A stretch of 32,000 nt of DNA. Origin: Opitutales bacterium (GTDB taxonomy: Bacteria > Verrucomicrobiota > Verrucomicrobiia > Opitutales > PNEW01). The notes under the pieces were generated by a model, which was given only the letters and a program-made list of their open reading frames with translations, made no database searches and was not told the origin of the DNA. The position numbers were made by a program, and so were the translations under genes. Positions within the stretch are counted from its first letter, which is position 1; each line of letters opens with the position of its first letter. The stretch is from NCBI GenBank assembly GCA_965219535.1, contig CBDCNV010000002.1:720001-752000 (forward strand), read 5' to 3'. Shown piece after piece: positions 7,637-29,707 of the stretch.

Positions 7637-7772
7637 GGGGTCATACGTAGAATTTAAATATAAGTAGTGTGGTAAGTACTTCAGGAATTGCAGTACGCTT
7701 AAAAGCTGACTCTCTTCTCGAGGTAGTAATATAATTAAGAATCGATAGTATTTAAATTCTACGTTTGACCCC
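7637..7772. mobile_element. MITE-like element, copy 1 (23-bp terminal inverted repeats GGGGTCATACGTAGAATTTAAAT / ATTTAAATTCTACGTTTGACCCC)
   Basis: Inverted ends at 7637-7659 and 7750-7772. An A-rich run lies before it and T5 after it. It sits between the convergent genes 6461..7624 (+) and 7857..11144 (-). Second copy at 28536-28652. Confidence 0.7.
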
Positions 7773-7856: not shown

Positions 7857-10800
7857 TCATCGCGCCCCTCCTTCCATTCGTATCCGGGGGTCGAGCCACA
7901 GGAGCAAGAGGTCGCTGACCAGAGTGCCTAAGACACCTAATAGACTTAATACCATAAGCATTGAACCAGCCATATACATATCTTCTTTCATCAGGGCATC
8001 CAACATTAACGGACCTACCGTGGGGAGACTGAGGACCATCGCGACGATGGCGCCCCCTGAAACGAGTTGAGGAAAGATTGCCCCGATACTGGATATAAAC
8101 GGATTAAGCGCGATACGCACCGGGTATTTCAATAAGAGCTTAAAGGGTCGCAGCCCCTTGGCCATAGCGGTAGTGACATAAGGTTTTTTCAACTCGTCCA
8201 GGAGATTGCCTCGCATCACCCGGATCATACTCGCGGTACCCGTGACCCCCAAGACAACAACGGGAACCCAGATATGCTGCAAGAGATCCAAGATCTTTCC
8301 CCTCGTCCATTCCGGTTGGACTGCATACTCGGGTGAATACAAGCCCGAGATATTAATGCCAAGATACTTAGCACTCCAATAAAGCAGGATCAATGCGAGG
8401 AGAAAGCTCGGAACACTCATCCCAATAAATCCGATCAAGGTAAATAGATAATCACTTAAGGTATATTGTCGCACTGCTGAATAGATACCGATGGGCAGCG
8501 CTAGAGCCCAGGTAAAGAGAATGGTGCCCATCGAGATGAGGAAAGTGAGAAGAATGCGATCACCGACAACTTCATTGACCGGGCTCTGGTTTTCCATCGA
8601 CAAACCCATGTGCCCCTGCAACAAACCCTGATCTTTCTTTTCAAAAGAAGTAAACCAGTTAAGACCGAGCCACCGTGTATAACGTTCGACGACGGGCTTA
8701 TCGAGGTGAAATATCTCGCGCAACTTTTCGGCCTCATTGATATTCATGCGCCCGCCTTTTATCCGTAGCTCCAGAATTTTGGTATCGATATAATTACCGG
8801 GGGGCAGTTGGATGATCACAAAGGAGATTACCGAGATGATGAGAAGGGACGGCACCATGATAAGTAAGCGCCTTCCGATGTAAGGGTGCCGCACACCGAT
8901 CATAAGTATACCACAGCTGAAAATACCGATGAACAAATATTTGATGAGCCTTGCCAGGTGACTAACGTTTTTCGATTCGAGATTGTCGTCAACCAGACCA
9001 TAAGGGGCAGGAGTGATTTCGCTTATTTCCTTTTTCAACTTTGCAAGGGTTCCTGGTGAATTATAAGGGTTTTCGAAGTAGTAGGTTTCTAATCCCGCGT
9101 TGGAAGGCGGAAACATGCGTCCACTATAGAATGCATTGCGCGGAACGTTTTTAAAACCGTTTTTGACCACGACCGGGTGCGGTGGTGGAGTGGTTACATT
9201 GATCGACCAGACATTTTCTGTAGCAATATCGAATATTTTATGAATATATTCGCGTTGCGCTTCGCGCGTGGTCACACCGTATGCTGCTCCGAGTAGTTCC
9301 ATTGATTTCCTCAGAGGATGATCACTCGGGGGTTCTATACCGCCGAGTTGAGTGGCTTCGGGGTTACCTGATAGTCCGTCTCTCAAATACCAATTAAAAT
9401 AGCCGTATGCTTGTGTCCCGGATAAGGCCATAAATCTCTCCGGAACCATGATGGGGTTAAATTCGCCATCCGAGGGGAAAGCGGAAAATTCAAGTTTGCG
9501 TGATCTTTCTTTTAAACCAAAGAAGGCTGTAGGCAGTGTGTGTTGAATCGCACGAATGCCAACACGACCCCAGTCTTCGATAATGAGCTCAGTAGGACCT
9601 TCGTCTTCCCCTTCCGGCAGTTCATAATTCCACAGCATGCGCGATCCGTCCTTGAAGGTGCGGTAGCCTCCGCCATCTCGCCTCGTAAGGCCTATCGCAT
9701 CGAGCAGTTGGTTCGCTCGGTCGGGCGCATACTCGGTAAAGCTTTTATGCAATTTTTCATGGTGAAAATAGGATTCCCTTCCCGGTGATAGTTGGGCCGG
9801 TTCTCCGATCATGTTGTAGACGATATCAATAATTTGCCGGCGATTGATCGCGAGGGAGAGCGCCTGGCGGAAGCGTTTGTCATTTAATAGATCGTGTTTC
9901 ATTTGGGTTATCGGATTGTCGGGGTCTATCCAAAGGTTAAGATTCGGATAGATCAGATACCGAGAGCGCGTAGCCGGAAACCAGTGATAAACTTCGTAAT
10001 CGTTTGTTCTGCGTTGCGACATGAGCAGGGTATAATATAAATCCATGCTATCGAAGATTCTAAAAGGCATTTCCCCGCTGGCCGCTATTATCGGTATAAG
10101 CTTATTGTTTTTTACGTCGAAAAATAATTGATCGATATAGGGGAGCTGATTGCCCGCGGTATCGACTGCCCAGTAGTAGGGATTGCGGACAAATGATTGG
10201 GGAGGATTGGCTTTATAAGTACGATAAACCCAGGGCCAAAGCCGCGGGTATTCGGGGTTTAACCAGTGTTTCAATAAAGTGTAGAGGCTCTTGCGCGTAG
10301 GCAGTCTTCTCGCTTCCATCGTAGCCTCGATGAGGGTCTCATCACCGAATTCCGGGTGATATCTTTCCAGGTAATGTCGCGGCGAACTAAATTCGGTCGC
10401 TCCAGTCAATTGTTCAAGAAACGCTCCATAGGGTTGAGGGAAAACGAACTTAACCGTGTAGTCATCGATTTTGACAATCTTCCCTGTCTTTCCACCGATT
10501 TTCATCCACCGAGGTGGTAGAGATTGGTATAATTCAAGCGTTACTTCTTTATTCCACCAGTAGAGAATATCATCGACCGTGAAAGGGTGTCCGTCAGACC
10601 ACTTCATCCCTCTGCGCAAGTAAAATGTCCATTCTTTCCCGTCAGGGCTGGATTCCCAGCTTCTAGCCACATGAGGCACGATCGGATAACCGAGAGGAGA
10701 CCAGCGAACAAGTAAGGACCCGGAATAGAATGAACCGATGAGACTGATTTCTAAAACTTGTCCAACTACTTCGGGATACGTGCCGCCATATTTACCGATA

Positions 10801-11144
10801 TTGTCCACTCCTTTAAGGACCAATGGCTCGGATCCCACACGCTCAGCTAGCGGTGGCAGTTTGCCTTCAGCTACCAGTTCAGCAAAGAGGGGTGATTCAG
10901 ATCGTGGAAACCAGGAGCCGGATTCTCTCTCACTGTAATCGACATCCTGTTGTATTTTGAAAAGATCATCCTCGGTGAAACTGATATCTCGTGACGTTTC
11001 AGTTTTGTTAATTTCTTCTTCGCTATAATGAATGGGTTCCACTTCCAATTCCGGCTTTAAGATATCGCTCCAAAGATAGTAAAATCCAAATACGCAACAA
11101 ACGGTAAGAAATAGAAGACCTGAATATTTAAATACTTTATTCAT
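7857..11144 (-). CDS. Fusion protein: N-terminal anchor + family-5 (DppA/OppA-like) solute-binding domain + extra TM helix + DppB/OppB-type ABC permease domain
   Basis: One uninterrupted 1095-aa ORF. TM anchor LLFLTVCCVFGFYYLW. SBP_bac_5-like core (WSDGHPFTVDDILYWW...). Extra helix LIKYLFIGIFSCGILMIGV (nt 8892-8948). Then a typical permease with IGRRLL start and EAA-loop YVTTAMAKGLRPFKLLLKYPVRIALNP. Confidence 0.85.
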   Translation of the reverse strand: MNKVFKYSGLLFLTVCCVFGFYYLWSDILKPELEVEPIHYSEEEINKTETSRDISFTEDDLFKIQQDVDYSERESGSWFPRSESPLFAELVAEGKLPPLAERVGSEPLVLKGVDNIGKYGGTYPEVVGQVLEISLIGSFYSGSLLVRWSPLGYPIVPHVARSWESSPDGKEWTFYLRRGMKWSDGHPFTVDDILYWWNKEVTLELYQSLPPRWMKIGGKTGKIVKIDDYTVKFVFPQPYGAFLEQLTGATEFSSPRHYLERYHPEFGDETLIEATMEARRLPTRKSLYTLLKHWLNPEYPRLWPWVYRTYKANPPQSFVRNPYYWAVDTAGNQLPYIDQLFFDVKNNKLIPIIAASGEMPFRIFDSMDLYYTLLMSQRRTNDYEVYHWFPATRSRYLIYPNLNLWIDPDNPITQMKHDLLNDKRFRQALSLAINRRQIIDIVYNMIGEPAQLSPGRESYFHHEKLHKSFTEYAPDRANQLLDAIGLTRRDGGGYRTFKDGSRMLWNYELPEGEDEGPTELIIEDWGRVGIRAIQHTLPTAFFGLKERSRKLEFSAFPSDGEFNPIMVPERFMALSGTQAYGYFNWYLRDGLSGNPEATQLGGIEPPSDHPLRKSMELLGAAYGVTTREAQREYIHKIFDIATENVWSINVTTPPPHPVVVKNGFKNVPRNAFYSGRMFPPSNAGLETYYFENPYNSPGTLAKLKKEISEITPAPYGLVDDNLESKNVSHLARLIKYLFIGIFSCGILMIGVRHPYIGRRLLIMVPSLLIISVISFVIIQLPPGNYIDTKILELRIKGGRMNINEAEKLREIFHLDKPVVERYTRWLGLNWFTSFEKKDQGLLQGHMGLSMENQSPVNEVVGDRILLTFLISMGTILFTWALALPIGIYSAVRQYTLSDYLFTLIGFIGMSVPSFLLALILLYWSAKYLGINISGLYSPEYAVQPEWTRGKILDLLQHIWVPVVVLGVTGTASMIRVMRGNLLDELKKPYVTTAMAKGLRPFKLLLKYPVRIALNPFISSIGAIFPQLVSGGAIVAMVLSLPTVGPLMLDALMKEDMYMAGSMLMVLSLLGVLGTLVSDLLLLWLDPRIRMEGGAR

Positions 11145-11175
11145 CTAAAGGAATAAGCTCATCGTGGGCTGTATT

Positions 11176-11210
11176 CAGTGAACAGTGAACAGTAAACAGT
11201 GAACAGTGAA
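11176..11210. repeat. Heptanucleotide array (CAGTGAA CAGTGAA CAGTAAA CAGTGAA CAGTGAA)
   Basis: Direct reading. The same unit recurs at 1770-1790, 14518-14545 and 16288-16329, and inverted at 5142-5176. Confidence 0.9.
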
Positions 11211-11346
11211 CTCAAAACCGCTGAACGGTGTACCGAGGGTATAGCCCGACATCTTCCACCGTGAACCTCCTTAACCTAAAATTTAAAACTGGGACAGCAT
11301 ACCTAATAAACGCTAAGGCACTCTTTCCTTTTTAATTTTAGTATCA

Positions 11347-19148: not shown

Positions 19149-20523
19149 GTATAGGTTCAAGACATTCTTTACACAAAAGGTTCAGGACATCCTTTACAGA
19201 TTGCCAAAGAAAGAAGGATGCTAAGTAAGGGGTATGATGTCATGGAAGGAAACAAATAAAATGGACCAAAGATACCAATTCGCCCTGGAATCGATGCAAC
19301 CGGGAGTAAAGATGAACGAGCTGTGTGAAGACTACGGGATCAGCCGACCGACAGGGTATAAATGGAAGAAGCGCTTCCTGAGCGAAGGGATGGAGGGGTT
19401 GCACGAGCGCTCACGCCGACCGCATGGAAGTGTTCAGGAACTATCCGAATCAGTAGTATGTACGCTGATCAAACTCAAGCATCATCACCCGACGTGGGGC
19501 CCCTACAAGATCCGCGAGCTTTACCAGAGGCGTTACGGGAAGGCCCCCTCAGACTCGAGCGTGAAACGGGTCTTGGAACGTGCGGGACTGGTGCAAAAGC
19601 GTCGGCGCAGAAGCGCTCAAAAAAGCGGACGCCTTTACCGCAGCGTCAAGGCCAGTGGCTGTAACGAAGTGTGGAGCGTAGACTTCAAAGGGTGGTGGCA
19701 CACCGTTGATGGCAACCGTTGTGAACCTTTGACGGTACGGGATGAATGGAGCCGCTATGTATTAGAGGTGCGGGTGCTCAGTTCAGCCCGTAGCGAAGCG
19801 GTGCGTGAATGCTTCACAAAACTCTTTGAACGCTATGGACTTCCCGCTTGCATCCGCAGCGACAACGGCAGTCCCTTTGCCAGTGCCAATGCGGTCCTGG
19901 GCCTGAGCAAACTGGCGGCCTGGTGGCTGGCCTTAGGGATCAATCTCGAGCGTGGACGTCCGGGTAAACCCCAGGATAACGGTGCCCATGAGCGTCTCCA
20001 TCGCGATATCAAAGAGGAGTTGCAAAAACATGCCCAGGACGATCTTCGCACCCAACAGGTGGCCTTCGATCTGTGGCGCAAGACCTTCAATGAAGAACGC
20101 CCCCATGCGGCTCTTGCCATGAGCACGCCCTCTGAAATCTATCAGCACAGCTCTCATCCTTACGGTGGCACTCCTGCCGATATCAGCTATGATTTGATGA
20201 CTCGCCGGGTCTCAAAAAGCGGGTCTATCAAACTCGATGGCTTCCAGATTCCTATCTCCACCGCCCTCGCCGGTTGGAGCGTTGGACTAAAACCACTAGA
20301 CACGGTACACTTCGATGTTTACTTTGCCACTCTCAGAATCGGTCAGATTGACCTTTCAACGGCTGCTTTCATTGGGGCCGCTTGCGGCCCCAACAATGCC
20401 AGCCAAACCTCTAAAACCGCATAACATTAACTTAACTATATAACCCGATTACCGTTCAGCATCCCTCACAAAGTGTAAACCATGTCTTGATCTAAATCTG
20501 TAAACCATGTCCTGGTTGTACCC
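19148..20523 (+). mobile_element. IS481-family insertion sequence, complete copy 2 (~1.38 kb; ends +/- 3 bp)
   Basis: Single transposase ORF. Imperfect inverted ends GGTATAGGTTCAAGACAT / ATGTCCTGGTTGTACC. Each end carries two copies of the TGTAAA-NN-ATGTCYTG motif in inverted orientation. The right end is defined by loss of identity with copy 1. Confidence 0.8.
19234..20424 (+). CDS. IS481-family DDE transposase
   Basis: 396-aa ORF. N-terminal HTH with the typical GISRPTGYKWKKRFLSEGMEGLHERSRRPH stretch and an rve integrase core (VDFKGW, SDNGSPF, DNGAHERLHR). No frameshift. Confidence 0.85.
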   Translation: MMSWKETNKMDQRYQFALESMQPGVKMNELCEDYGISRPTGYKWKKRFLSEGMEGLHERSRRPHGSVQELSESVVCTLIKLKHHHPTWGPYKIRELYQRRYGKAPSDSSVKRVLERAGLVQKRRRRSAQKSGRLYRSVKASGCNEVWSVDFKGWWHTVDGNRCEPLTVRDEWSRYVLEVRVLSSARSEAVRECFTKLFERYGLPACIRSDNGSPFASANAVLGLSKLAAWWLALGINLERGRPGKPQDNGAHERLHRDIKEELQKHAQDDLRTQQVAFDLWRKTFNEERPHAALAMSTPSEIYQHSSHPYGGTPADISYDLMTRRVSKSGSIKLDGFQIPISTALAGWSVGLKPLDTVHFDVYFATLRIGQIDLSTAAFIGAACGPNNASQTSKTA

Positions 20524-22580: not shown

Positions 22581-22919
22581 TTAATAACTGAAACTGCGGA
22601 TGATTGCATCTCCTAAAATGCTGTAAAATACAGTTTCAGAAGGAACTTTATGACAGTTGTTCTCGTTGAGATACTTTAAGATTGCTTCGTCATCCTCTGG
22701 TGGAAAAAATAATTGCACTTCACCATCAAAATCTGAACCCAGGGAGAAATTAATACCGGTTATTAAAATTGTCCCTTGTCCCAAGTCTGCTTCTGCTCCA
22801 GTAATGAGCAGTTCTTGTTTTCCCTGGTCGCTATCATTATTATTGTCTGCCAAGAGAGAATGGTTTGTGAGGATAAGAATAGTGATAAGGATAATAAGGT
22901 GGTGAAGAATGTTTTTCAT
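22581..22919 (-). CDS. Small secreted hypothetical protein (AT-rich gene)
   Basis: The ORF track gives 124 aa from 22955. The internal Met at 22919 opens a classic signal peptide, MKNILHHLIILITILILTNHSLLA. I recognise no domain. Confidence 0.5.
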   Translation of the reverse strand: MKNILHHLIILITILILTNHSLLADNNNDSDQGKQELLITGAEADLGQGTILITGINFSLGSDFDGEVQLFFPPEDDEAILKYLNENNCHKVPSETVFYSILGDAIIRSFSY

Positions 22920-23127
22920 AATGACATCAATATTTAGCTGGATTAAGCCGGACACGGCGAATGCTCGTTAGGGAACTGGACCTTCAGTCTGGAGCCACTA
23001 CCTTAACTTGCTAAGGATGAAGCAAAAGGCAGTGTGAGGGGCTTTTCTCCCTAACCATTTACAAGCCACAGTGAGTAGTGAGAGCGTTTTGATGGGCTGG
23101 GGTATACATAGGATATGCCTTGAAGAG

Positions 23128-25353
23128 TTACTCAATCGTCAATTCTTCAGTCGTAACTTCGATCGCATCGCCATCTTCATTGGCGAAGGTGGCATCGATA
23201 CTCAGTGTAGGTTGAGGCGTGTTGTCGGACTTGAAGTTGTTCTGAGAGATCAGGGTGTCAAACCCGGTCGTTGTCGATCCACTCTCCGCTACCACGACTG
23301 CCGCACCGTTCGTCTGCAAGAGGTCACCACCTGTGATCCGCAAGCCGGGATTGCCGGCTGGCACCGTGAACGATCCTGATCCAAAGAGTAAATGCGGGAC
23401 CGCATCGCCATCAGCATCGATGTCACCCACGGTTAAGCGAACCGCGATCGGTACCCCGCGCGCATCGAAGCCGACCTTGCCGGTGCTTCCACTGAATACG
23501 GCATTCGATAACTGCACCCCTCCCAGTCCCGTAGAGTTGACCACTTCCACAAGGGCAACATTCGCCTGGGCGTCATAGACCTGTCCTTCGGGGAACAGCG
23601 CCTGGTTAAAAGCGTTGATCCTGCCAACTGTGAAGATGCTGAAGAAGGTATTGGCGTCTGCTCCTTCGATGACCACGCTCGGCTTGCCCGTTACGTACTC
23701 AACCTGCTGGTTGTAGCGTGGAGGTATGGCCGGGGGCAGGAAGGTGGCCGGGTCCAGGGTTACGGTAAAGGTGCCGTTGCCGGAGAATTCTACCTGCACA
23801 ATGTCTTCGTTTTCGTCCATGAAGGAAACGCGGGTGATCTGTCCCGGTTTGGCCTGGAGTTGGACGGACTCTCCGGTGAGTAAAATCTGGTCGAAGACAT
23901 TACCGTTGGCATGCTGAATGTCTTCACCCGCGATATCCCCCGAGCCATCGAGCACGAGGGGAATGGAAGGAGCTGCTACGGTGATGACCGCGGTATCGCT
24001 GTCGGTAGTACCTCCGGCGTTTGTTATTTGCACCCAGAAGCTGGTGTTCGCAGTAAGCGCGCCGGTATCGAGGGTGCTGCCGGTGGCCCCGGCGACGGGG
24101 TTAGCGATGTCACCGCTGTTACCGGTATACCACTGGTAGGTAAGATCATTCCCACTGGCAGCAACAGATAAGTTTGCCGATGCGCCGGACTGAACTTCCT
24201 GGCTGGTGGGTTGAGTGGTGATAGTCGGAGCATCCGCAGGTGGGGGACCTTCTCCTTCTGTTCCCGGAGCACCGATAGGGGTAAATCCAAAATCATCGAC
24301 TGTAGTACGACTGAAATTAACGCTAACATCGGGATCATCCTTCATCACCAGCCTGCTAATACCGCCGGGAGCTCCTAATTCTTCGGCATTGATGGTTATA
24401 AATCTGGGTTTGAACTCAGCTCTAATATTTCCTTCTAAATCTGAAAAGGTTGCCAGTAAGTTATCGTTCGTATCATAGACTTCAATTGCGCCGTTGGGAT
24501 CGGTACTGCCAGCAGCCACTGTGGTAGCTCCGAAAAAATCTATTTCATAGGCTGGAGTTTCAAAGGTGATGGTTGCCTCCCCTCCATTAAATAATCCATA
24601 AGTATTAAAAAACGCGCGTACATAAATGAAATTACCTGCAACCCTGTTTATAATCATTCCTCCCTCAAAGGTAGCAGTATTGGGCGAAGTACCCAGGACC
24701 AAGGGTTCTGATCCTCCTTCACCCGTACTAAATTCTTCAAAAGTGCTGTAAACAGTGTTGTTTGAGGGGAAGTCGGTCAGGGTAAATCCCAGGTCGTCGA
24801 GGACGAGTTTTCCCGTAACATTAAGAAACTTTACTTCGAGGATACCGCTGAGGAAGTCAAAATCATCTGTATCTTGAAAAACCCCGCTGTCTCCTACAAA
24901 ACTGTATAAAGGGGGATTGGCGCCAGGGCTGATATTTGCTGGCAGTCCTTCGATAAGACCTCCATTGCCAATGACGAAGTTACTTTTAGTGTCAACTGAG
25001 GGGTCTGGTATGACTTCTCCTCTTACCTCAATTCTACCTGCGCCTGTGTTCTCGCCCGCATAAAATTCCAGAAATTGTATACCTCTTGATGATGATATTC
25101 GCCCTTCCTGTCCAGGTCCCAGGGTTAAAGCCTTTGTCCCTGAATGTAATTGAGCAGGATCCTCTAATGTTTCCACCGTGAAACCTGTTATAGTAACCGT
25201 ATTCGGCTCCTGCCCGATGACAATCGTGCCTTCACCACTTACGTCCTCGAAATCGGTGAACACCTCGAGGTCTTGAGGTAGGGCTGACAGGCGCACCGAT
25301 AAATAGAGCAAGAGAATCAGAAGCGGAATTATTTTTATAGGTTTTCTTTTCAT
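23128..25353 (-). CDS. Large secreted protein of unknown function, paralog P1 (signal peptide, duplicated N-terminal module, Ig-like module, conserved C-terminal half)
   Basis: 741-aa ORF. Signal peptide MKRKPIKIIPLLILLLYLSVRLSA. Ig-like pattern TITTQPTSQEVQSGASANLSVAASGNDLTYQWY. The C-terminal ~375 aa are about nine-tenths identical to P2 by eye. Confidence 0.85.
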   Translation of the reverse strand: MKRKPIKIIPLLILLLYLSVRLSALPQDLEVFTDFEDVSGEGTIVIGQEPNTVTITGFTVETLEDPAQLHSGTKALTLGPGQEGRISSSRGIQFLEFYAGENTGAGRIEVRGEVIPDPSVDTKSNFVIGNGGLIEGLPANISPGANPPLYSFVGDSGVFQDTDDFDFLSGILEVKFLNVTGKLVLDDLGFTLTDFPSNNTVYSTFEEFSTGEGGSEPLVLGTSPNTATFEGGMIINRVAGNFIYVRAFFNTYGLFNGGEATITFETPAYEIDFFGATTVAAGSTDPNGAIEVYDTNDNLLATFSDLEGNIRAEFKPRFITINAEELGAPGGISRLVMKDDPDVSVNFSRTTVDDFGFTPIGAPGTEGEGPPPADAPTITTQPTSQEVQSGASANLSVAASGNDLTYQWYTGNSGDIANPVAGATGSTLDTGALTANTSFWVQITNAGGTTDSDTAVITVAAPSIPLVLDGSGDIAGEDIQHANGNVFDQILLTGESVQLQAKPGQITRVSFMDENEDIVQVEFSGNGTFTVTLDPATFLPPAIPPRYNQQVEYVTGKPSVVIEGADANTFFSIFTVGRINAFNQALFPEGQVYDAQANVALVEVVNSTGLGGVQLSNAVFSGSTGKVGFDARGVPIAVRLTVGDIDADGDAVPHLLFGSGSFTVPAGNPGLRITGGDLLQTNGAAVVVAESGSTTTGFDTLISQNNFKSDNTPQPTLSIDATFANEDGDAIEVTTEELTIE

Positions 25354-25414
25354 GCTGTTATAACGATTGAAGCGATGCCAAAGATCGGCGCAAGGACTAT
25401 TCGCTTATTGGGTA

Positions 25415-25588
25415 TTTTTTTGCGGGTTGGTTAGTCATCTTAACTAACCATTTTTTAATTATTGGTGAGGACTATAGTTGCCAAATATTCTGCTTTTTTT
25501 GGCAACTGCCCCTGGAACCCGCATAGATAAAGGGGAACCTCTGCGTCCCGAACGCAGCGCTCTACCAGGCTGAGCTACACCCCGTTGT
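25415..25588 (-). other. tRNA-Pro-headed, A-tailed repeat element, copy A, in the 5' leader of P1
   Basis: Minus strand: tRNA-like head 25584->25536, T-arm-like GCGGGTTCC (25522->25514), hairpin 1 (25477-25506), hairpin 2 (25429-25449), tail CCCGCAAAAAAA (A7 = 25415-25421). The 10-bp direct repeat TACCCAATAA flanks it at 25589-25598 and 25405-25414. Confidence 0.7.
25536..25584 (-). pseudogene. tRNA-Pro(CGG)-like 5' fragment (not a functional tRNA)
   Basis: CGGGGTG TA GCTC AGCCTGGTA GAGC G CTGCG TTCGGGA CGCAG AGGTT. The acceptor 5' strand, D arm and anticodon arm are intact. No T-stem 3' strand and no acceptor 3' strand follow. Confidence 0.8.
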
Positions 25589-25686
25589 TTATTGGGTAAT
25601 TCTTATATTACTTTTTACGGTATTAACGAAAGCTAAATATTTTTAAGGGGTGTTGGTATAATTCATTGATTGTCGTTAACTATAGC

Positions 25687-25717
25687 GGCCATGACGAAGC
25701 ATGGCCCTCCATTTTTT
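25687..25717 (+). terminator. Terminator-like hairpin GGCCATG-ACGAAG-CATGGCC followed by T6 on the plus strand
   Basis: 7-bp stem at 25687-25706 and T-run at 25712-25717. The orientation fits plus-strand transcription, although all neighbouring genes are on the minus strand. Confidence 0.3.
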
Positions 25718-25778
25718 ATTTCCACCATATGCTTAACGCTTAAAACCTAAAACTTAATACTAACACTTCTCAAAGAGA

Positions 25779-28010
25779 TCACTCAATAGTGATCTCTTCG
25801 GTTACAACTTCGATCGCATCGCCATCTTCATTGGCGAAGGTGGCATCGATGCTCAGTGTCGGTTGAGGGGTGTTGTCCGATTTGAAGTTGTTCTGCGTGA
25901 TCAGGGTATCAAATCCGGTTGTTGTCGATCCACTCTCCGCGACGACAACTGCGGCACCGTTTGTCTGCAAGAGGTCGCCACCCGTGATCCGCAACCCGGG
26001 GTTGCCGGCTGGTACTGTGAAGGAGCCTGAGCCAAAGAGTATGTGCGGTACTGCATCGCCACTGGCATCGATGTCGCCAATAGTTAAACGTACGCCGATC
26101 GGTATTCCCCGCGCGTCGATACCGGTCTTGCCGGTACTTCCACTGAACGCGGTGTTCGACAGTTGTATGCCGCCCATGCCCGTGGAATTTACAATCTCAA
26201 CTAATGTAACGTCAGCCTGTGCATCATAAACCTGTCCCTCGGGGAAGAGGGTCTGATTAAACGCATTGATCCTACCCACGGTGAAGATACTGAAGAAGGT
26301 ATTGACGTCCGCTCCGTCGATCACGACGCTCGGTTTGCCCGTCACGTACTCGACGGCCTGGTTGTAGCGTGGGGGGATGGCCGGGGGCAGGAAGGTGGCC
26401 GGATCGAGGGTTACGGTAAAGGTACCATTACCTGAAAATTCTACCTGCACGATGTCCTCGGTTTCATCCATAAAGGAGACGCGAGTAATCTGATTTGGTC
26501 TCGCCTGTAACTGGATAGTTTCTCCGGTGAGTAAAATCTGGTCGAAGACATTACCGTTGGCATGTTGTATGTTTTCACCGGCGATATCGCCCGAGCCGTC
26601 GAGGACGAGGGGTACGGAGGGTGCTGCTACTGTGATTACCGCGGTTTCACTGTTCGCGGTGCCGCCCGTGTTAGTAATCTGTACCCAGAAGCTCGTGCTC
26701 ACTGAGAGAGCACCCGTGTCTAAAGTCCCAGCAGTCGCGCCCGCGACGGGACTGGCTGTGTCACCGCTGTTGCCGGTATACCACTGGTAAGTGAGATCAT
26801 CTCCACTGGCGACAACAGACAGGTTGGCCGAAGCGCCGGACTGCACTTCCTGGCTCGCGGGCTGTGTGGTAATCGCCGGTGCATCTGCGGGAGGGGGACC
26901 CTCGGAGCTGGTGCCCGGGGCGCCAATGGGGGTAAAACCGAAAGTGTCGAAAACCGTCCGGCTTCTCGCTACATTTACATTGGGATTGTCTTTAACAACC
27001 AGTCTGCTAATACCCCCCGGAGCACTCAATTCTGCCGCATTGATCGTTAAAAAAGGGGGTTTGTTAATAAATCTTAGAGGACTATCACCAGTAGTTCCAC
27101 CACTAGAAAAATCCGTAAAAGTAGCAATAAGGTTATCATCAGTATCATATACTTCAATCGAGCCATCGGAGTCTGTAGTGGCTCCCGAAATAACCGCGGC
27201 AGCATAAGTATCCACTTCATAAGCCGGGGTTTCAAAGGTGACTTCGAATGAATCACCATTAACTTGAATCCCATAGGATACACCTCCCGAGTGAGTCGGA
27301 TTTCCTGCTGCTCCGGCCATAATCTGACCGCCATCAAAGGAAGCAGTAAAGGGCGATGTCCCAATAACAAGAGGTTCGAACTGTCCTGAACCTACACCGA
27401 ATTCCTCAAAATATGTCAAGACCGTATTATTGGATGGTTTGGCCGTGAGGGTGAAGCCCAGATCGTCGAGGGAAAATTTACCTGTAACATTCTTGATCTT
27501 TATTTCTCTGATGCCATCGAGAAAGTCAAAATCCGTGTTATCGATAAAACTACCACTATCTGCAATACCACTCTGTAATGGGGGATTTGCACCGGGGCTG
27601 ATATTATTCGGCAGACCATCGATCACACCATTATCGGCGAGAATGAGTTCTATACTCAGAATCGTTGAGAAATTTCCTCGGTACTCGATTCTGCCGGCTC
27701 CCGTACTCTCGGCCGCATAGAATTGGATTTCATCAAGCCCTCTATCCGATACAATTACCCCCTCCTTACCAGGCCCGAGGGTTATCGCTTTTGTTCCCGA
27801 GTGTAAGAGCGCAGGATCCTCCAGAGTTTCCACCGTGAATCCGACTAACTTGACCCTGTTGGGTTCTTCCCCAATGAAAAATTCGCCTTCCCCGCTGATG
27901 TCCTCGAAATCGGTGAACACCTCGAGGTCTTGAGGAAGGGCCGATAGATGCACCGGTAAATAGAGCAAAAGAATCAGAAGCGGAATTATTTTTATAGGTT
28001 TTCTTTTCAT
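25779..28010 (-). CDS. Large secreted protein of unknown function, paralog P2
   Basis: The ORF track starts at 28052. By homology with P1 (identical MKRKPIKIIPLLILLLYL and a conserved upstream leader) the real start is the ATG at 28010, giving 743 aa. Confidence 0.85.
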   Translation of the reverse strand: MKRKPIKIIPLLILLLYLPVHLSALPQDLEVFTDFEDISGEGEFFIGEEPNRVKLVGFTVETLEDPALLHSGTKAITLGPGKEGVIVSDRGLDEIQFYAAESTGAGRIEYRGNFSTILSIELILADNGVIDGLPNNISPGANPPLQSGIADSGSFIDNTDFDFLDGIREIKIKNVTGKFSLDDLGFTLTAKPSNNTVLTYFEEFGVGSGQFEPLVIGTSPFTASFDGGQIMAGAAGNPTHSGGVSYGIQVNGDSFEVTFETPAYEVDTYAAAVISGATTDSDGSIEVYDTDDNLIATFTDFSSGGTTGDSPLRFINKPPFLTINAAELSAPGGISRLVVKDNPNVNVARSRTVFDTFGFTPIGAPGTSSEGPPPADAPAITTQPASQEVQSGASANLSVVASGDDLTYQWYTGNSGDTASPVAGATAGTLDTGALSVSTSFWVQITNTGGTANSETAVITVAAPSVPLVLDGSGDIAGENIQHANGNVFDQILLTGETIQLQARPNQITRVSFMDETEDIVQVEFSGNGTFTVTLDPATFLPPAIPPRYNQAVEYVTGKPSVVIDGADVNTFFSIFTVGRINAFNQTLFPEGQVYDAQADVTLVEIVNSTGMGGIQLSNTAFSGSTGKTGIDARGIPIGVRLTIGDIDASGDAVPHILFGSGSFTVPAGNPGLRITGGDLLQTNGAAVVVAESGSTTTGFDTLITQNNFKSDNTPQPTLSIDATFANEDGDAIEVVTEEITIE

Positions 28011-28073
28011 GCGGTTATAACGATTGTAGCAATGTCCAAAAAATCGGCGCAAGGACTAAATGCTTATTGGGTA

Positions 28074-28248
28074 TTTTTTTGCGGGTTGGATAGTCATCTT
28101 AAATAACTATTTTTTAATTATAGGCAAGGGTTACAGTTGCCAAATATTCTGTTATTTTTGGCAACCGGACCCGAAACCCGCATAGGTAAAGGGCGACCTC
28201 TGCGTCCCGAACGCAGCGCTCTACCAGGCTGAGCTACACCCCGTCAAT
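28074..28248 (-). other. tRNA-Pro-headed, A-tailed repeat element, copy B, in the 5' leader of P2
   Basis: Head 28243->28195 is identical to copy A through the anticodon arm (anticodon CGG). The hairpins are conserved. A7 tail at 28074-28080. Flanking repeats at 28249-28258 (TACCCCATAA) and 28064-28073 (TACCCAATAA). Confidence 0.7.
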
Positions 28249-28340
28249 TTATGGGGTAATACTTATATTACTTTTTAAAGCGTCAACGAAAGCTAAATAT
28301 TTAGCGTATGATGGTATCATCTAAAGAAGGACTATAAAGA

Positions 28341-28414: not shown

Positions 28415-28447
28415 TTAACACTTAAAACCTAACACTTCTCGAAGAGA

Positions 28448-28535
28448 TCTCTCAATAGTAATCTCTTCGGGAATAACATCGATCGCATCGCCATCTTCAT
28501 TGGCGAAGGTTGCATCGATACTCAATGCTGCAAAA
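28448..28535 (-). pseudogene. 3' remnant of a third paralog (P3); stop codon mutated, body deleted at the MITE junction
   Basis: Homologous to the last ~85 nt of P1/P2 and reads ...AALSIDATFANEDGDAIDVIPEEITIE. TCA (stop) is changed to TCT at 28448-28450. Homology ends at 28535, where the MITE begins. Confidence 0.75.
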
Positions 28536-28652
28536 GTGGTCAAACGTAGAATTTAAATATCGAGAGCGTGAGAAGTTAATCAATCAGAATAAATAGTTGT
28601 CTTCGATATCAAAGGAAACAGAAAATTACATTTAAATTCTACGTTTGACCCC
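28536..28652. mobile_element. MITE-like element, copy 2 (inverted ends GTGGTCAAACGTAGAATTTAAAT / ATTTAAATTCTACGTTTGACCCC)
   Basis: Ends at 28536-28558 and 28630-28652 match copy 1 (7637-7772). The internal ~70 bp is not obviously related to copy 1. Confidence 0.65.
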
Positions 28653-28690
28653 TTTTGACTTCCACAGTAACCTGTATTTTAAGCTAAGAA

Positions 28691-29563
28691 ATGAATTCGA
28701 ACCACATACATAAAGTTTTAAGCGGGGGTTGCCTATGCGGCCATGTGCGTTACGAATACGCAGGTGAACCAGAAGGTGCAAATTATTGCCATTGTTCTAC
28801 CTGTAGGAGAATGACGGGTAGTGCCTTCAACGTTGGCATACGTGGTCAAGCAAACTTGCTGAATATCATATCAGGCAAAGTTAAGGGATACACGAGGAAG
28901 GCAGACGATGGTAATGAGATTACTCGCGAGTTTTGTCCGGAATGTGGATCGCCTCTGTTTACAAGGTTACCTTCAAATCCACAGTTTATATTCATAAAGG
29001 CAGGAAGTCTCGATGACTCGACTTGTGTGAAACCATCATATCAGATGTGGACTGAAGAAGCAGTCCCTTGGGCTCATATTGATGAGAATATTACAAGCTA
29101 CCCACAAACCCCGACACCGCCTAGTGATGACATAGCACCGCCTAGTGATGAGATAACACCACCTGTTGATGAGATAACACCGCTTGTTGATGAGATAACA
29201 CCGCCTGCTGATGAGATAACACCGCCAATTACAATACTCAAAAAGCAAGCAGAAATTTTAGAAACTCAGACAAAAGGAACCCTTAAAGGATTAGTTTGGC
29301 ACTTCGTAAATGTAAATAAAATCTCTATCAGACTTGATATCTTAGCACAGAATTTAGACGACTATAGTATGACCGTGCTCCGTATAGAACAGCCACTTAA
29401 TATTTATCCTCTAAGAATATTTAACGAAATAACAAATGAAGAACATAAAGTCGAAAATGAAGAGGAATTTATTAGCACTCTTCGATCCATTTTATCATCG
29501 AATGATGTTAAACGAGAAATCAAAGTAATTTTTTCTCAAAGTAAAAATAAAATAACATTTTGA
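28691..29563 (+). CDS. GFA-family (CENP-V/glutathione-dependent formaldehyde-activating-like) zinc domain fused to a heptapeptide-repeat linker and an unknown C-terminal domain
   Basis: 290-aa ORF. The Cys pattern CLCGHVRY...CHCSTCRRMTGSAF...CPECGSPLF is typical of GFA. Then come PPSDDIA PPSDEIT PPVDEIT PLVDEIT PPADEIT and a ~105-aa AT-rich-encoded tail. Confidence 0.75.
   Translation: MNSNHIHKVLSGGCLCGHVRYEYAGEPEGANYCHCSTCRRMTGSAFNVGIRGQANLLNIISGKVKGYTRKADDGNEITREFCPECGSPLFTRLPSNPQFIFIKAGSLDDSTCVKPSYQMWTEEAVPWAHIDENITSYPQTPTPPSDDIAPPSDEITPPVDEITPLVDEITPPADEITPPITILKKQAEILETQTKGTLKGLVWHFVNVNKISIRLDILAQNLDDYSMTVLRIEQPLNIYPLRIFNEITNEEHKVENEEEFISTLRSILSSNDVKREIKVIFSQSKNKITF
29117..29227 (+). 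repeat. 21-bp tandem repeat, ~5.3 copies (CCGCCTAGTGATGAGATAACA consensus), in-frame within 28691..29563
   Basis: Units at 29117, 29138, 29159, 29180 and 29201, plus a partial unit at 29222. Confidence 0.9.
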
Positions 29564-29597: not shown

Positions 29598-29707
29598 ATA
29601 GTTACCAAATATTCTGCTTTTTTTACAACTGCCCCTGGAATCTGCATAGATAAAGGGGAAACTCTGCGTCCCAAACGCAGCGCTCTACCAGGTTGAGCTA
29701 CACCCCG
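29598..29707 (-). other. tRNA-Pro-headed element, copy C (partial: head + hairpin 1 only; anticodon TGG)
   Basis: Head 29707->29659: CGGGGTGTAGCTCAACCTGGTAGAGCGCTGCGTTTGGGACGCAGAGTTT. Homology to A/B begins exactly at the tRNA-like 5' end and stops after a degenerate hairpin 1. The upstream flank is unrelated to A/B. Confidence 0.65.

Follow-up and report, generated by a model that had tools for sequence, protein, structure and literature searches.

Two neighbouring genes in the genome of an Opitutales bacterium, here called P1 and P2, encode members of a family of large exported proteins that grows and diversifies by tandem and dispersed duplication and by homologous recombination. They lie in a 32,000-nucleotide (nt) stretch of DNA (contig CBDCNV010000002.1 of assembly GCA_965219535.1, positions 720,001 to 752,000), which we refer to as the window and whose numbering we use throughout. 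In our reading, to which we give about even chances, the family, which is massively expanded in one lineage, supplies a combinatorial repertoire of exported proteins for binding glycans or other ligands, built on a common attachment or targeting module. In each of the two proteins, a Sec signal peptide is followed by two homologous jelly-roll modules (the N-modules), a Pro-rich linker, an immunoglobulin (Ig)-like domain of the Pfam family Ig_7 and a conserved C-terminal domain of about 280 amino acids (aa):

23128..25353, minus strand: P1, full-length family member of 741 aa (open reading frame, ORF)
25779..28010, minus strand: P2, full-length family member of 743 aa with the architecture of P1 (ORF)
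25276..25353, minus strand: Sec-type signal peptide of P1, aa 1-26, MKRKPIKIIPLLILLLYLSVRLSA followed by LPQD, no lipobox Cys (sequence inspection)
24769..25275, minus strand: N-module 1 of P1, aa 27-195, predicted jelly-roll beta-sandwich resembling carbohydrate-binding modules (CBMs) and lectins, with a hypervariable indel loop at aa 114-129 (AlphaFold, Foldseek, entropy and indel map)
24274..24768, minus strand: N-module 2 of P1, aa 196-360, second predicted jelly-roll and ancient duplicate of module 1, hypervariable at aa 234-252, 275-285 and 309-313 (hhalign, AlphaFold, Foldseek)
23971..24273, minus strand: Pro-rich linker (GAPGTEGEGPPPADAP) and Ig_7 domain (aa 376-459) of P1, with a recurrent breakpoint at the 5' edge, at about window position 24278 (Pfam)
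23131..23970, minus strand: conserved C-terminal domain of P1, aa 462-741, without a family match but present in 744 clusters

The length of P2 is counted from the ATG that aligns with the P1 start; a TTG at 28052 is a formal alternative start.

An earlier note, made from the letters of the window alone, had described P1 and P2 as head-to-tail paralogs with conserved ends and a divergent core, and this description holds. Both genes are on the minus strand, and their products are 75% identical over the full length (BLASTP), but unevenly so: identity is 94% over aa 1-35, drops to 58% with 14 gap columns over aa 40-365 and rises again to 88% over aa 366-741 (90% for the C-terminal domain alone, aa 462-741), close to the near identity, one half and nine-tenths that had been estimated by eye. 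The repeat unit, intergenic leader included, measures 2651-2669 nt, and the roughly 270 nt upstream of the two genes are 80-94% identical. A search with P1 returned 495 homologs with E <= 0.001; the 120 listed are 717-754 aa long and 73-94% identical, and many homologs are encoded on the same multi-megabase contigs.

The copy-number survey that the note had called for placed P1 and P2 in a family of which they form only a small part, there being at least 47 copies per genome. When reference genomes were scanned, 137 relatives turned up in three Opitutales records, namely the metagenome-assembled genomes (MAGs) OY829953.1 (a 4.49-Mb chromosome) and CBDANS01, and the Sargasso Sea single-cell genome Opi.OSU.00C. 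When P1 was mapped onto 69 loci, at least 47 full-length copies were found on OY829953.1 and at least 39 in CBDANS01, both being lower bounds from the best 80 matches only, while Opi.OSU.00C holds one family member. The copies are dispersed round the chromosome as singletons or as head-to-tail arrays of two or three, and are accompanied by frameshifted copies, variants without the Ig domain and many 5'-truncated 3' fragments. At about 2.2 kb per copy, the family occupies some 2% of the 4.49-Mb chromosome. The organism behind Opi.OSU.00C has been described as a free-living bacterium that reaches its maximum once the spring bloom is over and breaks down carbohydrates from phytoplankton (PMC6003095). 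The content of the window, which includes two sulfatases, a glycoside hydrolase (GH) of family GH32, a BNR sialidase-like protein, a DUF2961 protein and a GH-like protein of 565 aa that adjoins P1, fits such a lifestyle.

Modelled with an alignment of 58 homologs, the N-terminal half of P1 (aa 27-372) is predicted by AlphaFold to form two beta-sandwiches (predicted local distance difference test, pLDDT, 83.7; predicted template modelling score, pTM, 0.79). The top match of this model in a Foldseek search of the PDB is the tandem CBM22-1/CBM22-2 pair of the xylanase Xyn10C (4xup; E 6e-9, probability 1.0), followed by reelin repeats, CBM-like domains of Vip3/Cry, a tandem F-lectin, a gingipain adhesin domain, CBM32, CBM61 and MAM domains; a viral library searched with the N-modules yielded generic CenC/F5-8C-like domains. 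By predicted fold, with 4xup, CBM32 and CBM61 among the structural matches, the N-modules thus belong with the jelly-roll CBMs. By sequence they do not: no CBM model of Pfam or NCBIfam matches at E <= 1, and identity to the structural matches is 9-16%. The internal duplication noted in this half is real, as hhalign aligns module 1 with module 2 over 147 columns (95.6% probability, E 1.2e-8), and it is old, given that BLASTP detects only a 31-aa match between the two (E 0.002). Across 122 family members, variability is concentrated in discrete indel-bearing stretches (aa 114-129, 234-252, 275-285, 309-313 and 344-348). These lie mostly in predicted loops. Overall, entropy is not significantly different between strands and the remaining positions (p = 0.35).

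The mature P1 and P2 proteins contain no Cys at all, have an isoelectric point of 4.05 or lower and consist to 35% of Thr, Ser, Gly and Asn. Likewise, 93% of the 122 family members are Cys-free in their mature part, and neither P1 nor P2 has the Cys of a lipoprotein lipobox. With a signal peptide, this very acidic, Cys-free composition and two predicted CBM- or lectin-like jelly rolls, the proteins have the look of the variable, exported, ligand-binding family that had been proposed.

The Ig-like module is confirmed as Ig_7 (PF19081; P1 aa 376-459, E 3.4e-10), scoring 40.5 bits in P1 and 34.7 bits in P2 against a gathering threshold of 27.3 bits. Its relatives in the PDB and among the PHROGs are exclusively Ig-like domains of phage tail or decoration proteins, and the name 'CHU_C associated' refers to this domain only. 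Searches of Pfam, NCBIfam, PHROGs and the PDB, made with the whole protein and with the C-terminal domain, matched the Ig domain alone. The note had recognised no characterised family for either half, and indeed no Pfam, NCBIfam or PDB sequence family covers the N-modules or the C-terminal domain; nor did a literature search find a paper describing the family or this domain, the ecological account of Opi.OSU.00C being all that it returned.

The C-terminal domain has a core of about 230 aa (approximately aa 468-690 of P1) with the motifs HxNGNxYDQ(V/I)LLTG, DxNDDIVQVEFSG, YNQ..YVKG and GGDLxQxNG. It remains without a match in Pfam, NCBIfam, the PDB or the PHROGs even when searched via a profile of diverse members, and profile comparison shows it to be unrelated to the N-modules. 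To follow it beyond the family, we searched 1.84 billion cluster representatives (50% identity) with a query in which the N-modules and the C-terminal domain were joined and the Ig domain was omitted. This search returned 744 proteins at E <= 1e-3, 396 of them at E <= 1e-30, and among the best 150 of the 744, nearly all matches are to the C-terminal domain alone. The host proteins range from 127 to 3517 aa; in most of them the domain comes last, usually after an Ig domain, and occasionally it is present in two copies. In 53 multidomain proteins, its partners include Ig_3 (26), Peptidase_S8 (6), He_PIG (6) and DUF5122 (5) as well as NHL, beta-lactamase, GH43, GH71 and GH16; RCC1, TonB_C, CARDB and Golvesin_C are further partners, and DUF5122, NHL and RCC1 are beta-propellers. 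Proteins with several Ig domains also end in it. All carriers are named 'hypothetical protein' and have no precomputed Pfam match on this domain, and some of them begin with an 'EQRQLLA' motif, which is known from planctomycete exoproteins. For P1 and P2, NCBIfam returned no family and Pfam only Ig-type matches, so that neither is marked as cargo of a type IX secretion system (T9SS). Their C-terminus is acidic (…NEDGDAIEVTTEELTIE) and has neither the hydrophobic segment nor the NCBIfam match of a PEP-CTERM-type tag. No relative of the domain was found among the 2.9 million viral contigs of IMG/VR.

Recombination shows up in a comparison with two sister strains (loci L002 and L003). The flanking GH-like gene is 99.3-99.4% identical to its counterparts in these strains, and so, at 99-100%, is the stretch from about nt 150 to 1000 of the P1 gene to its ortholog; the 3' half of P1, by contrast, is only about 79% identical. 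Against L003, 237 differences fall into the 1150 sites after nt 1076 and 27 into the 1076 sites before it. This breakpoint, in the linker between the N-modules and the Ig domain, is strongly supported (maximum chi-square 174, 0/2000 permutations). Synonymous divergence (dS) from the sister strains is 0.05-0.09 in the N-modules, 0.97 in the C-terminal domain and 2.3 in the linker and Ig domain, and the first 150 nt or so of the gene and its leader differ as well. P1 is thus a statistically supported mosaic, as expected for a member of a set of recombining paralogs. In one lineage, the entire 3' half has thus been exchanged very recently, as has, independently of it, the 5' end, and the N-module cassette stayed in place. 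The donor of the 3' half is not among the 70 loci at hand. Chimeric assembly of repeated genes in MAGs is a possible source of error here, but the two independent assemblies, L002 and L003, agree with each other.

The same breakpoint, here at about nt 1096, separates the halves of a tandem pair on OY829953.1 (L005_6001/L005_9942), in which the 3' 1116 nt are 94% identical and the 5' halves have diverged. Apart from this one older exchange of 3' halves, comparison of the copies on that chromosome revealed one recent whole-gene duplicate: the copies at 1.85 Mb and 4.24 Mb (L024 6001-8235 and L030 6001-8256) are 95.7% identical over 2191 nt, and this pair, by far the closest on the chromosome, indicates a recent long-range duplication. 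The content of the arrays varies even among near-identical strains. A close ortholog of P2 is missing from the sister strains, and the best matches to its N-modules elsewhere reach only 82-87% nucleotide identity; L002 has a different upstream copy, and L003 a single copy. In both sister strains, a gene for an 899-aa protein on the opposite strand (8535-11234) lies downstream of the family gene, whereas the window has only a 124-aa ORF (22581-22955, minus strand) between P1 and the GH-like gene, an arrangement shared by locus L027. The presence or absence of the 899-aa gene is a strain-level indel adjoining the array. Expression switching finds no counterpart here, in that each copy has its own leader and start and the leaders contain no long homopolymer or invertible segment.

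To explain the conserved ends and divergent core, the earlier note had offered gene conversion homogenising the ends or diversifying selection on the core, and the substitution patterns bear on both. Between P1 and P2, the N-modules show a dS of 1.4-2.0 and a ratio of nonsynonymous to synonymous rates (dN/dS) of about 0.2; in the C-terminal half, the values are about 0.9-1.1 and 0.06. The latter dS is near saturation, so the similarity of the C-terminal halves reflects purifying selection on an old duplicate and not recent conversion. No part of the protein is more constrained across the family than the C-terminal domain (dN/dS 0.05-0.07), whose entropy is 0.28 bits compared with 0.8-1.1 bits in the N-modules. 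The 5' end behaves differently: dS is 0.30-0.35 over the first 40 codons or so, and a breakpoint about 110 nt into the gene is well supported (maximum chi-square 44, 0/2000 permutations). Of the two ends, only the 5' one, with some 270 nt of upstream sequence and about 40 codons, thus looks homogenised. Diversifying selection on the core is not borne out, as a dN/dS of about 0.2 in the N-modules carries no average signal of positive selection; the hypervariable loops, with their saturation and indels, are beyond the reach of this measure. More generally, we discarded dN/dS evidence for positive selection as a candidate, every region being below 1 (0.05-0.55) and synonymous sites being saturated in most paralog pairs.

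We propose that the N-modules would bind ligands, most plausibly glycans derived from algae or particles, because their fold and a genome rich in sulfatases and glycosidases suggest so. The C-terminal domain would be a shared, non-catalytic module that ties its cargo to a common partner in the envelope or outside the cell; dockerins, T9SS C-terminal domains and S-layer anchoring domains provide the analogy. Because the domain forms the end of many exported enzymes and binding proteins that are otherwise unrelated, a shared role in attachment or targeting is its simplest reading, although it may have an enzymatic or ligand-binding role. In the diversification of the family, the conserved leader and signal peptide on one side and the conserved linker, Ig and C-terminal half on the other act as homology arms, by which N-module cassettes and 3' halves are recombined. 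The resulting diversity would serve substrate range, escape from phages and grazers, or both. A bolder version of this proposal, which we find rather doubtful, is that the C-terminal domain of about 250 aa is an unrecognised display or sorting 'address tag' of Verrucomicrobiota and other bacteria of the Planctomycetes-Verrucomicrobia-Chlamydiae (PVC) type, into which Opitutales would have plugged a lectin repertoire whose recombining cassettes track algal glycans or evade phages.

The duplicated region extends into the intergenic leaders and a truncated third copy, with the following features:

25354..25642, minus strand: leader/upstream repeat of P1 (direct repeats D3 and D7, at 87%)
28011..28302, minus strand: leader/upstream repeat of P2, with a tRNA-Pro fragment at 28188-28243 (repeat comparison and Rfam)
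25477-25584, 28136-28243 and 29600-29707, minus strand: three T-arm-less tRNA-Pro-like units with the anticodons CGG, CGG and TGG
28448..28535, minus strand: 3' remnant of a third family copy, its last 29 codons or so (88 nt; repeat family D4), with the stop codon changed from TGA to AGA
28531..28657, no strand assigned: element of about 127 nt resembling a miniature inverted-repeat transposable element (MITE), with 28-nt terminal inverted repeats (CAAAAGTGGTCAAACGTAGAATTTAAAT; arm 28531-28558, arms 96% complementary)

The leader of P1 comprises a stretch resembling a tRNA-Pro promoter, a T-arm-less tRNA-Pro(CGG) fragment (25530-25584), a hairpin and a proximal leader of about 110 nt, which is common to a subfamily of paralogs. 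The tRNA fragments score below the Rfam gathering score of 29 (24.4 bits in the P1 leader, 26.8 bits in that of P2). In each unit, a tRNA-Pro is reduced to its 5' two-thirds by a cut in the T stem and is followed by some 60 shared nt that end in the hairpin GTTGCCA-N12-TGGCAAC. In the leaders of P1 and P2, the fragments retain a native-looking upstream region, and the third unit (29600-29707) occupies the position of an intact tRNA-Pro(CGG) in a relative (L001). In another locus (L069), a fragment lies upstream of the family gene and an intact tRNA downstream. No 3' tRNA half was found in the window, and the fragments have only four matches in the 70 loci, within L001, L002 and L069, so they are local to a sublineage and not a feature of the family. 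We treat them as markers of array building, with duplication units that start inside a tRNA gene. Two other roles were considered and rejected, namely that of a conserved leader RNA (RNAalifold covariation term +0.92; RNAfold z = -1.14) and, for the palindrome GTTGCCA-N12-TGGCAAC, that of a family operator, as it is found upstream of only 3/85 copies.

The third unit had been taken for a 3' remnant, and it is one: it is 90% identical to the 3' end of P2, with a further 19 nt of downstream homology (to 28429), and its 5' truncation point abuts the MITE-like element. A second copy of this element is located at 7639-7770, and many more are found in related loci (L020, L028 and others), so that it is multi-copy in the clade. 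A hairpin with a 13-bp stem spans the last codons and the stop at 25767-25804 (P2) and at 28436-28473 (remnant; GAAGAGATC…GATCTCTTC) and is possibly a transcript-end or recombination feature. Opposite the coding sequence of P1, ARAGORN calls a 91-nt 'tRNA-Asp' (24075-24165, plus strand), which is absent from the Rfam matches at E <= 1 and probably spurious.

Elsewhere in the window, an IS481-family transposase (rve, HTH_32, LZ_Tnp_IS481) is encoded at 19234-20424 (plus strand), just beyond the point at about 20640 where synteny with L002 and L027 ends. The product of a gene at 28691-29563 (plus strand) has a GFA (glutathione-dependent formaldehyde-activating) domain and is extended at its C-terminus, where 21-nt tandem repeats (29114-29197) encode heptads of the PPSDDIA/PPSDEIT/PPVDEIT type. 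Finally, an ORF of 1095 aa (7857-11144, minus strand) fuses SBP_bac_5, a domain of extracellular solute-binding proteins, to BPD_transp_1, a domain of ABC permeases, which is an unusual combination of binding protein and permease.

Several observations weigh against a glycan- or ligand-binding repertoire with a shared attachment module. The jelly-roll fold is generic, with a TM-score of only about 0.28 when normalised to the two-domain query, and as the N-modules belong to no CBM sequence family, 'glycan' is a guess from fold and ecology. Selection, as measured by dN/dS, gives no sign of favouring change. Between the 47 copies on OY829953.1 there are no tracts of 120 nt or more at 98.5% identity or above, so very recent intragenomic conversion is not frequent there, and homologous recombination between strains could be an equally good source of the P1 mosaic. 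As for the C-terminal domain, it stands at the N-terminus of some proteins and in the interior of a beta-lactamase/Golvesin_C protein, no conserved neighbour or partner gene was seen near the proteins that carry it, and its AlphaFold model reaches a pLDDT of only 36, because the family-only alignment (rows 85-95% identical) is too shallow. Moreover, it contains many invariant polar residues (H, D, Q, R, D, D, E, Y, Q, Y, N, Q, N), which could form a catalytic or ligand site instead of an anchor. If they did, the family might consist of isoenzymes, for example polysaccharide-active ones, that are targeted by variable CBM-like modules. The succession of two CBM-like modules, linker, Ig and large conserved domain does resemble modular carbohydrate-active enzymes, and the invariant polar and charged residues, the very strong purifying selection on the domain (dN/dS of about 0.06) and the sulfatase- and glycosidase-rich genome context would all agree with such a role. 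We still deem it unlikely that the domain is catalytic, for it is appended to enzymes of unrelated chemistry (S8 protease, GH16, GH43, GH71 and beta-lactamase) as well as to pure binding and propeller proteins and is sometimes duplicated, which is the pattern of an accessory module; in addition, it matches no Pfam or NCBIfam family and no PDB chain.

The shared module and the variable part could also be seen as the anchor and the exposed face of an S-layer-like surface coat or a surface-variation system, driven by escape from phages or grazers. Exported, very acidic, Cys-free proteins rich in Thr, Ser, Gly and Asn, with conserved ends and a variable exposed part, would suit this purpose, as would recombination at module boundaries, the turnover of arrays among strains that are about 99% identical and the many 5'-truncated 3' fragments, which are possible recombination substrates. 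What makes such a system improbable to us is that a leader, a start codon and a signal peptide come with each full copy, that we saw neither a single expression site nor an invertible promoter nor a long contingency repeat, and that selection maintains at least 47 intact copies (dN/dS 0.05-0.4), which suggests that many are in use. The most prosaic view, in which a hypothetical secreted protein underwent an ordinary tandem duplication long ago and its uneven divergence reflects domain-specific constraint, agrees with the saturated dS over most of the P1/P2 length, with a dN/dS below 1 everywhere and with the lack of recent conversion tracts among the 47 copies of one genome. We regard it as quite improbable, though, that no more than this has happened: about 2% of a 4.5-Mb chromosome is taken up by the family, P1 and P2 resemble each other far more in the leader and first 40 codons than at synonymous sites elsewhere, and the mosaic tests contradict it, in that P1 is a mosaic when set against strains that are 99.3-99.4% identical in the flanking gene and differ in array content. 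An origin as phage- or tailocin-derived receptor-binding proteins, or as cargo of a mobile element that targets tRNA genes, is suggested by the sequence matches of the Ig domain, which are solely to phage tail and decoration proteins, by the frequency of CBM-like domains in phage tail proteins, by the 5' tRNA-Pro fragments that precede P1, P2 and the L002 and L069 copies, and by the IS481-family transposase and MITE-like elements nearby. It appears highly improbable nonetheless, as the C-terminal domain has no relative in 2.9 million viral contigs, the copies are flanked by metabolic genes and not by phage, integrase or capsid genes, the tRNA fragments are local to a sublineage (four matches in 3/70 loci) and lack a displaced 3' counterpart, and the proteins carry Sec signal peptides.

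We continue to favour an exported binding repertoire on a common C-terminal module, for which the ecology of the group provides a setting. Marine Verrucomicrobiota are major degraders of algal polysaccharides; to our knowledge, they do without a surface machinery of the SusC/D type, such as Bacteroidota have, and their way of capturing substrates at the cell surface is poorly understood. An exported, lectin-like, strain-variable and unannotated family that makes up about 2% of a genome is an obvious candidate for substrate capture or for a phage-exposed surface. For the C-terminal domain, a defined fold and partner could reveal what positions an entire class of PVC exoproteins.

Among known systems, the closest structural parallel to the N-modules is the CBM22-1/CBM22-2 pair of Paenibacillus barcinonensis Xyn10C, which, like the P1 model, consists of two consecutive jelly-roll beta-sandwiches. 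As in the binding sites of CBMs, the variable residues of the N-modules are largely in loops. Unlike that pair, however, the P1 modules have no Pfam CBM match and come without a recognised catalytic domain, and sequence identity between the two is about 11%. As exported strings of Ig-like and CBM-like beta-sandwiches, P1 and P2 would be functionally analogous to the surface glycan-binding proteins of Bacteroidota (SusE/F-like), which capture polysaccharides. Those proteins are lipidated at the N-terminus and encoded inside SusC/D loci, whereas P1 and P2 lack both a lipobox and SusC/D neighbours and end in a different, conserved C-terminal domain. The latter resembles the T9SS C-terminal domain, dockerin and PEP-CTERM in that one module ends many unrelated exported proteins, here often after an Ig-like domain. 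It differs from these sorting and docking tags in its size (230-280 aa against about 20-100 aa), in having no match to the NCBIfam and Pfam models of such signals, in being sometimes N-terminal, internal or duplicated, and in that no cognate machinery has been identified.

The mosaic structure of the family has its best counterparts in the Bab/Hop proteins of Helicobacter pylori and the Sap proteins of Campylobacter fetus. These, too, are exported paralogs in which the ends are conserved and the ligand-exposed part is divergent, and which recombine with one another via their conserved parts. Bab/Hop and Sap have from a few to about 30 members, belong to host-associated pathogens, use beta-barrel or lipopolysaccharide-binding anchors and switch their expression in documented ways. 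The family described here, by contrast, is found in marine, free-living or particle-associated Opitutales, in at least 47 copies that each have their own leader, with no switching mechanism seen. It is thus of a familiar kind, an expanded exported binding family with a variable ligand-facing part and a conserved part for anchoring and recombination. What appears to be new, by the profile searches above, is that its N-modules and C-terminal domain lie outside the described sequence families and that the latter is a large, unrecognised module of PVC-type exoproteins; and the scale of at least 47 copies is unusual for a marine, apparently free-living polysaccharide degrader.

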